Assembly: GCF_041248615.1 (NCBI RefSeq)
Contig: NZ_CP158426.1
Reading direction: 5' to 3' (one strand)
DNA: 64,000 nt
From: Escherichia coli
GTDB lineage: Bacteria > Pseudomonadota > Gammaproteobacteria > Enterobacterales > Enterobacteriaceae
The position numbers and the translations under genes were made by a program. Position 1 is the stretch's first letter. Every line of letters begins with the position of its first letter. Positions 4,115-6,774 of this stretch are shown here, piece after piece. Under the pieces are notes generated by a model. The model was not told where the DNA came from. It worked only from the letters and a program-made list of their open reading frames with translations, and did no database searches.

Positions 4115-5080
4115 TCATGAGCGCCATTTAAAATTACCATCCTGAATATCATATGACAATATATTTTCACTAAAGCATGAATTGTATATGTCTATTAACT
4201 CTGGAAAATTATCAGGATTCACCTTCAAATTCACTTGAATGTTACGCTTAATTTCACCCAGCAGTTCTTCATGTGTGGATTTTATTATCCCTTTCTCATA
4301 ATCGATAAATACACACATGTTCTTTATGAATTCAAAACCTTTTCCTGTATACAGTTTAATGAATGCCACCAGAGCAAACATTTCAAGATATAGCCATAAT
4401 GCCACGTTAGTTTTTTGTAAAGTATAAAAAATTGAATTCGCCACTCTTTTACTTATTGCTCTTTTATACTGTGATCGGGCAAGATTCAGTAGCGGAAGCT
4501 CTCGTTCAATAAATGAATGTGAAAAGACTGGATAAATTGATGTAGGAAACCTTTCAGGTCTTATGATATTTTCTATTTCCACCATAAATCTATCCATAGA
4601 AAGAAAGTCACTTTCTTTTTTTATTCTGGTATAGAGACCGCCTTTATTCCTTTCTGAGGTTTGTTTTCGTGCTATCCCCCCCAACACTTTCTCTAATTGT
4701 TTATTTATCTTCGTATAATTAAATACAACCATTCTTCTTATCATCCTCGGAAGGATAATAATATCAGTGCTTGAATCACTTGAGCGGCAATTATTATTTA
4801 TCCATGCAACTTCAAGTTGCAGTATCGGAACATTAACTTTTCTGGGGTGAATATCTCTCTGATATCGTTTTTTGTATGCGTTTTCATTAAGATATTCTCT
4901 GCTGTAGAGAAACTTATAGCAATATAATCTGATAATATCTTTTATGTAAAATTTAAATAGTTCACCTGTAACAGATATATGTTTTCTGCTAGACTGGCCC
5001 CATGAATCTCCAGACAACCAATATCACTTAAATAAGTGATAGTCTTAATACTAGTTTTTAGACTAGTCATTGGAGAGCAG

Positions 5081-5446
5081 ATGATTGATGTCTTAGGACC
5101 GGAGAAACGCAGACGGCGTACTACACAGGAAAAGATCGCTATTGTTCAGCAGAGTTTTGAACCGGGAATGAAGGTCTCCCTTGTTGCCCGGCAACACGGT
5201 GTGGCAGCCAGCCAGTTATTTCTCTGGCGCAAGCAATACCAGGAGGGAAGTCTTACTGCTGTGGCCGCAGGAGAGCAGGTCGTTCCTGCCTCTGAACTTG
5301 CTGCTGCCATGAAGCAGATTAAAGAACTCCAGCGCCTGCTCGGCAAAAAAACGATGGAAAATGAACTCCTTAAAGAAGCCGTTGAATACGGGCGTGCAAA
5401 AAAGTGGATAGCGCACGCGCCCTTATTGCCCGGGGATGGGGAGTAA
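5081..5446 (+). CDS. insC: IS2 transposase OrfA (InsC)
   Basis: ATG at 5081; [30 protein letters not shown]… is the IS2 InsC sequence. Confidence 0.9.
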
Positions 5447-6309
5447 GCTTAGTCAGCCGTTGTCTCCGGGTGTCGCGTGCGCAGTTGCACGTAATTCTCA
5501 GACGAACCGATGACTGGAAAGATGGTCGCCGCAGCCGTCACTCAGATGATACGGATGTGCTTCTCCGTATACACCATGTTATCGGAGAGCTGCCCACGTA
5601 TGGTTATCGTCGGGTATGGGCGCTGCTTCGCAGACAGGCCGAACTTGATGGTACGCCTGCGATCAATGCCAAACGTGTTTACCGGATCATGCGCCAGAAT
5701 GCGCTGTTGCTTGAGCGAAAAACCGCTGTACCGCCATCGAAACGGGCACATACTGGCAAAGTGGCCGTGAAAGAAAGCAATCAACGATGGTGCTCTGACG
5801 GGTTCGAGTTCCGCTGTGATAACGGAGAAAAACTGCGAGTCACGTTCGCGCTGGACTGCTGTGACCGTGAGGCACTGCACTGGGCAGTCACTACGGGCGG
5901 CTTCGACAGTGAAACAGTACAGGACGTCATGCTGGGAGCGGTGGAACGCCGCTTCGGCAACGAGCTTCCGGCGTCTCCAGTAGAGTGGCTGACGGATAAT
6001 GGTTCATGCTACCGGGCTAATGAAACACGGCAGTTTGCCCGGATATTGGGGCTTGAACCGAAGAACACGGCGGTGCGGAGTCCGGAGAGTAACGGCATAG
6101 CAGAGAGCTTCGTGAAAACGATAAAGCGTGACTACATCAGTATCATGCCTAAACCAGACGGGTTAACGGCAGCAAAGAACCTTGCAGAGGCGTTCGAGCA
6201 TTATAACGAATGGCATCCGCATAGTGCACTGGGTTATCGCTCGCCACGGGAATATCTGCGGCAGCAGGCCAGTAATGGGTTAAGTGATAACAGGTGTCTG
6301 GAAATATAG
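5404..6309 (+). CDS. insD: IS2 transposase OrfB (InsD) reading frame, expressed as InsCD by -1 frameshift
   Basis: 301-codon frame overlapping insC; contains the DDE region and the C-terminus …SDNRCLEI typical of IS2 InsD. Confidence 0.9.
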
Positions 6310-6774
6310 GGGCAAATCCATCTGCTCAGTAACTCCTGTGTATTAAGCCATTCCCGTGACCGAAGCACACCCTTGTGAAAACTTTTTCTTACTTGCTTTG
6401 AAGCACGCCATTGATGTAATATTTTTGCGTCCTCAATAATTCTCTTTCCCGTTTTATTTTTTGCAGCATCTCTTACTCTATAAAATATCTCCCAGTCCAG
6501 ACTTTTGTCATATCTACTAATTATACGACAAATATTCCTGACCCGACGATTCTCTTTATTTCGCTTCCATAGCTTATAATGATCATCGCATAACCTTAAG
6601 GCATTTGCCTCATCAAATTCTGAAACAGGATTACTGCATTTTTTATTCCGACAGATACCTTTGTTTTTAGCCATACTCTTCTTCCCGTCAATGGAAAAAT
6701 TTTCACACCCATATTACCTGAATGATAAACCGGATTAGTGTGATCCGGTTCAGTGAAATCAACAGGATACCGGT

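Follow-up and report, generated by a model that had tools for sequence, protein, structure and literature searches.

A single locus in an Escherichia coli genomic island raises the question addressed here: when an insertion sequence has split a gene of no recognised function, does the break reflect selection against that gene or the ordinary erosion of the island that carries it, and what kind of gene has been lost? The site lies in contig NZ_CP158426.1 (assembly GCF_041248615.1), within a 64,000-nucleotide stretch of DNA that was analysed as a whole and is referred to below as the window, and it belongs to a CP4-57-like island adjoining tRNA-Sec (selC). The window corresponds to positions 96001-160000 of NZ_LT599825.1 (E. 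coli NRZ14408). An earlier note on the same DNA had described an IS2 copy splitting an AT-rich orphan gene, and had suggested that the gene was a recent acquisition, perhaps a toxic or defence gene inactivated by the insertion. Taken together, the results make it probable that the locus records a recent IS2 hit in a constrained, AT-rich island-family gene located beside a YfjP-type GTPase gene.

The inserted element and its immediate borders comprise the following features.

4990..6320, plus strand: complete IS2 (IS3 family), 1331 bp, antisense to the interrupted gene; RefSeq annotation: transposase of the IS3 family, programmed frameshift
4990..5030: terminal inverted repeat of IS2 at its orfA end, beginning TAGACTGGCCCC, defined by comparison of both ends
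6280..6320: the second terminal inverted repeat of IS2, finishing GGGGCAAATCCA, defined by comparison of both ends
5081..5446, plus strand: IS2 orfA (TnpA/InsC-like), matching NF006928 with 273.5 bits
5404..6309, plus strand: IS2 orfB (DDE transposase part), matching NF006918 with 700.8 bits
4985..4989: left copy of the target-site duplication TCTGC
6321..6325: right copy of the target-site duplication TCTGC

The identification of the element as IS2 with a TCTGC duplication stands. Both products score above the cut-offs of the NCBIfam IS2 models (229 bits for TnpA and 597 bits for TnpB), the two ends form imperfect inverted repeats of about 41 bp, and orfA and orfB overlap at 5404-5446, with an A7 run at 5345-5351 preceding the overlap. 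Length, ends, overlapping OrfA and OrfB and the 5-bp duplication are thus all those of IS2, for whose transposition a 5-bp target duplication is usual. An ungapped alignment with K-12 IS2A shows 60 differences in 1331 positions, an identity of 95.5%. Both copies are 1331 bp long, have a 5-bp target duplication and imperfect inverted ends of about 41 bp, and contain orfA and orfB in overlap, annotated with a programmed frameshift, and IS2A likewise interrupts a gene (yaiX), leaving two annotated fragments; they differ in that the RefSeq label for 4990-6320 reads merely 'IS3 family transposase'.

On either side of IS2 lie the two pieces of the interrupted gene.

6321..6674, minus strand: 5′ fragment, codons 1-118 (ATG at 6674-6672); RefSeq pseudogene fragment
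4115..4989, minus strand: 3′ fragment, with TGA stop at 4115-4117; RefSeq pseudogene fragment

The 5′ piece, running from 6674 to 6321, measures 354 nt, which is exactly 118 codons. In-silico removal of 4990-6325 joins this piece in frame to 4984-4115 and yields one stop-free open reading frame of 407 amino acids on the minus strand, in which the left copy of the duplication, lying within the 3′ fragment, completes codons 117-118, and codons 119-407 and the stop follow. The in-phase reconstruction proposed earlier is therefore correct, and the predicted length of roughly 408 amino acids was close, the exact value being 407. RefSeq annotates this locus as two 'incomplete' hypothetical-protein pseudogene fragments flanking an IS3-family transposase. 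The rebuilt gene is as AT-rich as had been reported, with a G+C content of 33.5% against 48.4% for the window and 52.7% for IS2.

Intact homologues exist in other genomes. The rebuilt 1224-nt gene is identical over its whole length (100% identity, 100% length) to intact annotated genes in four complete E. coli genomes, an agreement far beyond chance. At 90% identity or more it is found in 975 of 5,426 complete E. coli genomes, as a single piece in 968 of these 975. The intact allele corresponds to WP_001107219.1, annotated as 'hypothetical protein', and all alleles sampled share both this annotation and a length of exactly 1224 nt.

The age of the insertion can be read from the same collection. 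A 120-nt probe spanning the left junction is matched whole in one of the 5,426 complete genomes, the one studied here, in whose chromosome it finds 13 places, each holding at least the IS2-end portion. Since the sequence on either side has not departed from that of intact alleles, and all other complete genomes lack the insertion, the event is recent and strain-specific. A complete IS2 transposed into codon 117/118 of the 407-aa gene, with duplication of 5 bp of target, and thereby split the gene into its two present fragments; its function is lost in the strain that carries IS2. The same island also holds ISEc31, two copies of IS66, IS1, IS3 and IS91 fragments, and a WYL pseudogene. The insertion most likely reflects this general IS-driven decay of the island, of which it would be a further step, and not selection on the 407-aa gene; the data suggest no sign of a selected knockout by IS2. 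The insertion itself is thus ordinary genome decay, already apparent in the RefSeq annotation, and interest shifts to the gene that was struck.

That gene is no orphan, as the earlier note had supposed. Exhaustive searching showed the family to be small, with 25 representatives among 1.84 billion proteins. Klebsiella, Citrobacter and other enterobacterial assemblies encode relatives that are full-length and 22-37% identical, to which Foldseek adds proteins of Salmonella, Serratia, Enterobacter, Providencia and Lelliottia at 15-30% identity, and remote homologues occupy the same slot in other E. coli islands. Searching phage and plasmid collections with tblastn found no relative of the 407-aa protein, and literature searches under accession and GTPase names returned nothing on it. 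The family is hyper-divergent, basic and AT-rich, and is confined to chromosomal islands of Enterobacterales. Among E. coli alleles 3-9% apart in DNA, dN/dS of the 407-aa gene was 0.24-0.27, against 0.12-0.22 for the adjoining GTPase gene; the 407-aa gene is a real coding gene under constraint.

Base composition bears on the proposed recency of the gene. The G+C content of family members is 28-37% in the clades with the putative zinc motif described below and 43% in a clade of shorter proteins, against 45-59% for the GTPase genes located about 100 bp away. Because every member is AT-rich beside a GTPase gene of higher G+C in all contexts examined, the low G+C is long-standing: it is an old family trait and not the mark of recent arrival that had been read into it. 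Members are also strongly basic, with pI of 9.7-10.0 and a net charge of about +23 to +49. The high pI and Lys-richness are partly a by-product of AT-rich codons.

The position of the gene within the island is defined by its neighbours.

6775..7659, plus strand: YfjP-family (MMR_HSR1) GTPase gene, the constant neighbour
6675..6774: divergent intergenic region, 100 bp
2652..4114: AT-rich stretch downstream of the interrupted gene, 1.46 kb, devoid of annotated genes and of ORFs above 60 aa
1920..2651, minus strand: Inovirus Gp2 / YagK-YfjJ family gene, forming the other border of the slot

The interrupted gene thus occupies a slot between a YfjJ/YagK-type gene and a YfjP-type GTPase gene. The island shares with CP4-57-type islands a backbone in conserved order (alpA, yfjJ/yagK, the yfjP GTPase gene, yfjQ DUF932, yfjR WYL, antirestriction, RadC and CbtA/CbeA); it differs from CP4-57 of K-12 in being located at selC instead of ssrA and heavily rearranged by insertion sequences, and in the contents of the slot, which in K-12 holds abpBA, yfjM and rnlAB and no member of the 407-aa family. 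In the 1.46-kb gap, which was examined for gene remnants, RNAs and origins, there were no significant repeats or iterons and no Rfam match, and comparison with the equivalent gaps of more distant islands revealed no DNA conservation.

Where the 407-aa gene is missing, the same slot is filled in the same orientation by a gene for a 376-aa protein (WP_000147745.1), present in 463 genomes. Profile comparison aligns the two proteins over their full length at 18% identity (hhalign probability 98.7%, E 2.5e-16). Proteins of about 316 amino acids (316/318 aa) found in the same slot are similar to the 407-aa protein in the core only (probability 93.5%, E 2.3e-7) and form a clade without the Cys motif. 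YfjH of K-12 (318 aa), encoded in the same type of island, was considered as a family member and rejected, as it has, judged by eye, none of the family motifs.

Most members begin with the motif that the earlier note had remarked upon at the N-terminus and had compared to a zinc finger or an HNH-like element.

6579..6653, minus strand: codons of the CX4C-X15-CX2H motif (C8, C13, C29 and H32), a putative zinc site

In alignments of full-length members, C8, C13, C29 and H32 are invariant or nearly so and their spacing is fixed; two members have CX2C in place of CX4C, and one homologue carries the module twice in tandem. The 376-aa protein has identical CX4C-X15-CX2H spacing, together with an LYNSFF motif, and it is because the four residues keep their spacing even in this 18%-identical homologue that an N-terminal zinc-binding motif is plausible. 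Of the two earlier suggestions, the first accordingly gains ground, the motif being present and conserved, and the HNH-like one does not, no Pfam model matching at E<=10. Beyond the motif, members share a core at about residues 100-300 (SREW-NTQ, SREY, LEV, D192, P197-IRRMV, G-LY and LPL) and a YNSxFS motif near the C-terminus. An AlphaFold2 model built from 17 sequences (pLDDT 77, pTM 0.65) is mainly helical with one small beta-hairpin. Foldseek matched it in AFDB50 to uncharacterised enterobacterial relatives only and found no match among viral models, and for the N-terminal 55 residues the PDB offered nothing beyond RBBP4, a chance match that leaves the Cys residues unaligned.

Profile searches of the rebuilt protein gave nothing usable in Pfam, NCBIfam, PADLOC, PHROGs or PDB sequences. 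Neither the 407-aa protein nor 17 family members scanned singly matched Pfam at E<=10; NCBIfam and a profile search of PDB sequences returned no match for the 407-aa protein, and PHROGs returned a single one at E 0.082. In PADLOC-DB v2 the 407-aa protein matched no family at E<=1 and the 376-aa and 316-aa homologues none at E<=0.01, while eight relatives gave one match in all, that of P0026 to DpdJ (E 0.031, 10 bits).

Names attached to homologues in databases tell a different story, and with the Cys-rich N-terminus they provide what there is to say for the gene encoding a toxic protein, or a nuclease (HNH) or reverse transcriptase, whose inactivation by IS2 was selected. In UniProt, one homologue from Klebsiella is entered as 'Reverse transcriptase', a protein that NCBI lists as hypothetical, and some relatives from E. 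coli go under the name 'HNH endonuclease'. Both names were examined and rejected. For a reverse transcriptase, there is no RVT match in Pfam, no YxDD in the alignments, and the helical model has no polymerase match; for an HNH endonuclease, there is no HNH Pfam family, the lone His of the motif is a ligand, and neither an HN...H core nor a match to the beta-beta-alpha-metal fold was found. The names are unfounded for members of this family, and since nearly all carriers also retain the gene whole, with purifying selection acting on it, we regard a selected loss of such a protein as highly improbable. The catalytic domain of some phage HNH endonucleases is preceded by Cys/His modules of a zinc-ribbon or treble-clef-like type. 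The N-terminus of the 407-aa protein resembles them in its short CxnC...LCxxHYxxW pattern with four putative metal ligands and differs in having no HNH catalytic domain after the module, which no Pfam model detects, so that the likeness serves as a lead only.

The family has a constant neighbour. The family gene adjoins a YfjP-type GTPase gene in 12 of 12 informative contexts, drawn from Klebsiella, Citrobacter, four further assemblies (including a metagenome) and other E. coli strains; one further contig, which ends too soon beside the family gene, was left out of this count. As a rule the two genes diverge from start codons 92-106 bp apart, and in the most distant branch (22% identity) the family gene is co-directional with the GTPase gene and directly upstream of it. 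Across 1,870 E. coli genomes, 2,505 places carry the GTPase allele type of the window, and the 407-aa gene is found at 1,067 such places. The adjacency is not universal, K-12 yfjP having no family neighbour, and it follows that the GTPase does not need a partner of the 407-aa family. Across divergent islands, the family gene keeps its fixed place beside the GTPase gene in the manner of an island-backbone gene.

Read in the direction of the GTPase gene, the intergenic region between the two genes shows an invariant CTATATTAC and then a GC-rich inverted repeat, the arms of which vary between islands. This repeat was considered as an operator for the 407-aa protein and rejected: it travels with the GTPase gene and is present where the 407-aa gene is absent. 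In the inverted arrangement the block formed by CTATATTAC and the inverted repeat stays with the GTPase gene, and a hairpin also lies upstream of K-12 yfjP. Since the block follows the GTPase gene and K-12 yfjP has a hairpin as well, the block is not an operator tied to the 407-aa gene; by its distribution, it is part of the GTPase promoter or leader. RNAalifold gave weak covariation support for the inverted repeat, and promoter and terminator scans returned counts at or below shuffle expectation.

So constant an association invites the view that the two genes form a module, for instance a hyper-variable sensor or adaptor with a GTPase effector, which IS2 would have disabled as a pair. Adjacency in all 12 informative contexts, one of them with inverted relative orientation, is consistent with such a module, as is the observation that the dN values of both genes track each other among E. 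coli alleles, and the C-terminal part of the GTPase has a weak, partial match to PADLOC LeoBC (Eleos; E 6.3e-8). We nonetheless consider a two-gene module unlikely: K-12 yfjP lacks the partner, the genes are usually divergent and do not form an operon, and co-inheritance on one backbone accounts for both the adjacency and the correlated divergence without a functional link.

The slot itself suggests another reading, in which the gene is anti-phage defence cargo lodged between the YfjJ/YagK-type and GTPase genes, and IS2 removed a costly gene. Two known anti-phage loci, abpBA and rnlAB, occupy the slot in CP4-57 of K-12, and the nearby cargo of related islands includes restriction-modification, McrBC and TIR genes; moreover, the gene is rich in A+T, and its divergence outpaces that of the adjoining GTPase gene (identities of 33-37% and 52-70%, respectively). 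Such a role is nevertheless doubtful. No PADLOC model matches the family and no effector domain or fold is recognisable; occupancy of one fixed place beside the GTPase gene, down to 18-22% identity, is backbone-like and not what exchangeable cargo would display; and the prevalence of single-piece genes in carriers, the uniqueness of the insertion and the lack of phage or plasmid homologues also speak against it. The notion of a toxic or defence gene inactivated by IS2 consequently finds little to sustain it, given intact copies in 968 of 975 carriers, dN/dS of 0.24-0.27, no PADLOC match, an insertion without parallel and an island full of other insertion sequences and pseudogenes.

The reading we prefer, and advance tentatively, is that the 407-aa protein may be a zinc-dependent nucleic-acid-binding factor of the island backbone. 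It is favoured because four conserved metal ligands, a strong positive charge and a fixed backbone position coincide in one protein; no DNA-binding domain was found for it in Pfam, NCBIfam, PHROGs, PADLOC or PDB sequences. Under this reading the protein would be neither an enzyme nor interchangeable defence cargo, and might, for example, regulate the GTPase-WYL-DUF932-KlcA-RadC-CbtA module or determine its specificity.

A wider and appreciably more speculative proposal, which we think improbable as a whole, is that the proteins of 407, 376 and about 316 amino acids belong to one undescribed, hyper-variable superfamily, with at least three clades in E. coli, each supplying an island-type-specific partner of the YfjP-type GTPase that would function as a nucleic-acid-binding zinc-finger controller or sensor. 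If so, the partner would set the activity or specificity of the GTPase-WYL-DUF932-antirestriction-RadC-CbtA module, as the divergent master regulators of phage-inducible islands do. Islands of this type rank with the most frequent ones in E. coli and its relatives, and to our knowledge no function has been assigned to much of their backbone, the YfjP/YkfA/YeeP GTPases included. A previously undescribed family fixed beside a YfjP-type GTPase gene, AT-rich throughout and divergent to the limit of detection, emerged as a by-product of this analysis; it is a modest lead, and it offers a defined starting point for work on the control of such islands. The comparison that comes to hand is with Stl of SaPIs, and it is one of analogy only: the 407-aa protein has no sequence or fold similarity to Stl and no HTH, and the intergenic repeat belongs to the GTPase leader, but it resembles Stl in being fast-diverging and island-type-specific, in having its gene transcribed divergently from a conserved operon, and in combining a variable C-terminal domain with an N-terminus that may bind nucleic acid.

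The genes for YfjP-type GTPases in these islands share a leader, which in the window precedes the GTPase gene bordering the split gene; it and the other features considered here are as follows.

Features of the window and of related islands (window positions unless a comparison locus, L, is named)
2652-4114: AT-rich stretch of 1.46 kb (~30-42% G+C), with the split gene on one side and the Gp2/YagK-family gene on the other
6675-6774: leader of the YfjP-type GTPase gene, also in L003, L005, L008, L009, L011-L013 and L015, and in L006 upstream of K-12 yfjP
7862-8542 and 8690-10358: WYL pseudogene and hypothetical gene truncated by ISEc31
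9050-9172, plus strand: full-length isrC, an Hfq-binding sRNA (Rfam RF01387, 150 bits, E 2e-37)
13550-18728 and 22832-23529: dense mobile-element patch
L019 6692-7480 and L021 6954-7799: second gene (262-281 aa) of islands with the short (316/318-aa) clade

The order of elements in the leader is an invariant CTATATTAC, likely a -10 element, followed by a GC-rich inverted repeat, AGGAG and the ATG. The arms of the repeat vary in sequence among islands while their complementarity is kept, and the repeat, for which Rfam holds no entry, may act as an operator or form a hairpin in the 5' UTR. Using the L001 allele as query for the window gene (6775-7659), the C-terminal third of the GTPase (residues 185-289) yielded a partial match to the PADLOC LeoBC model of the dynamin-like defence system Eleos (E 6.3e-8), spanning profile positions 460-553 of 601. 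Judging from this similarity, the island GTPases are possibly linked, at a distance, to a known defence system.

On the other side of the split gene, the AT-rich stretch holds neither annotated genes nor ORFs above 60 aa, and searches for repeats, Rfam matches and cross-genus DNA conservation returned none. Of the 5,426 E. coli genomes, 1,876 conserve the stretch, a larger number than have the 407-aa gene; sharing is widest for the 1,080 nt closest to the Gp2 gene. L009, L017 and L021 have equivalent gaps, 1.5-1.9 kb long.

Among relatives of the 407-aa protein, the CX4C...CX2HY module is doubled in tandem at the N-terminus of one member (P0020, L009 8587-9984), suggesting an independent unit that can be duplicated. 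Four members (UniProt A0AAX3CP38, A0AAW5Z627, A0AAW5Z6I9 and A0AAU7N7V1) are named 'Reverse transcriptase' or 'HNH endonuclease', and neither name is backed by profiles, motifs or fold. The short-clade gene lies tail-to-tail, with a 4-nt overlap, with the second gene of its islands, which has no annotated function, shows a weak Pfam match to RepB-RCR_reg in the L021 copy and is missing from 407-aa-type islands.

Decay of the island is also indicated by the WYL-domain regulator gene adjoining the GTPase gene, a pseudogene with an internal stop, and by the hypothetical gene after it, cut off by an ISEc31 insertion. The mobile-element patch, comprising two IS66-family units in opposite orientations, one IS3 fragment, one IS91 fragment and IS1A, sits between a TonB-dependent receptor gene, an autotransporter gene and the selC integrase. 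In CP4-44-type islands isrC precedes flu; here it occupies the corresponding position, close to the start of the ISEc31 transposase coding sequence (about 9018).
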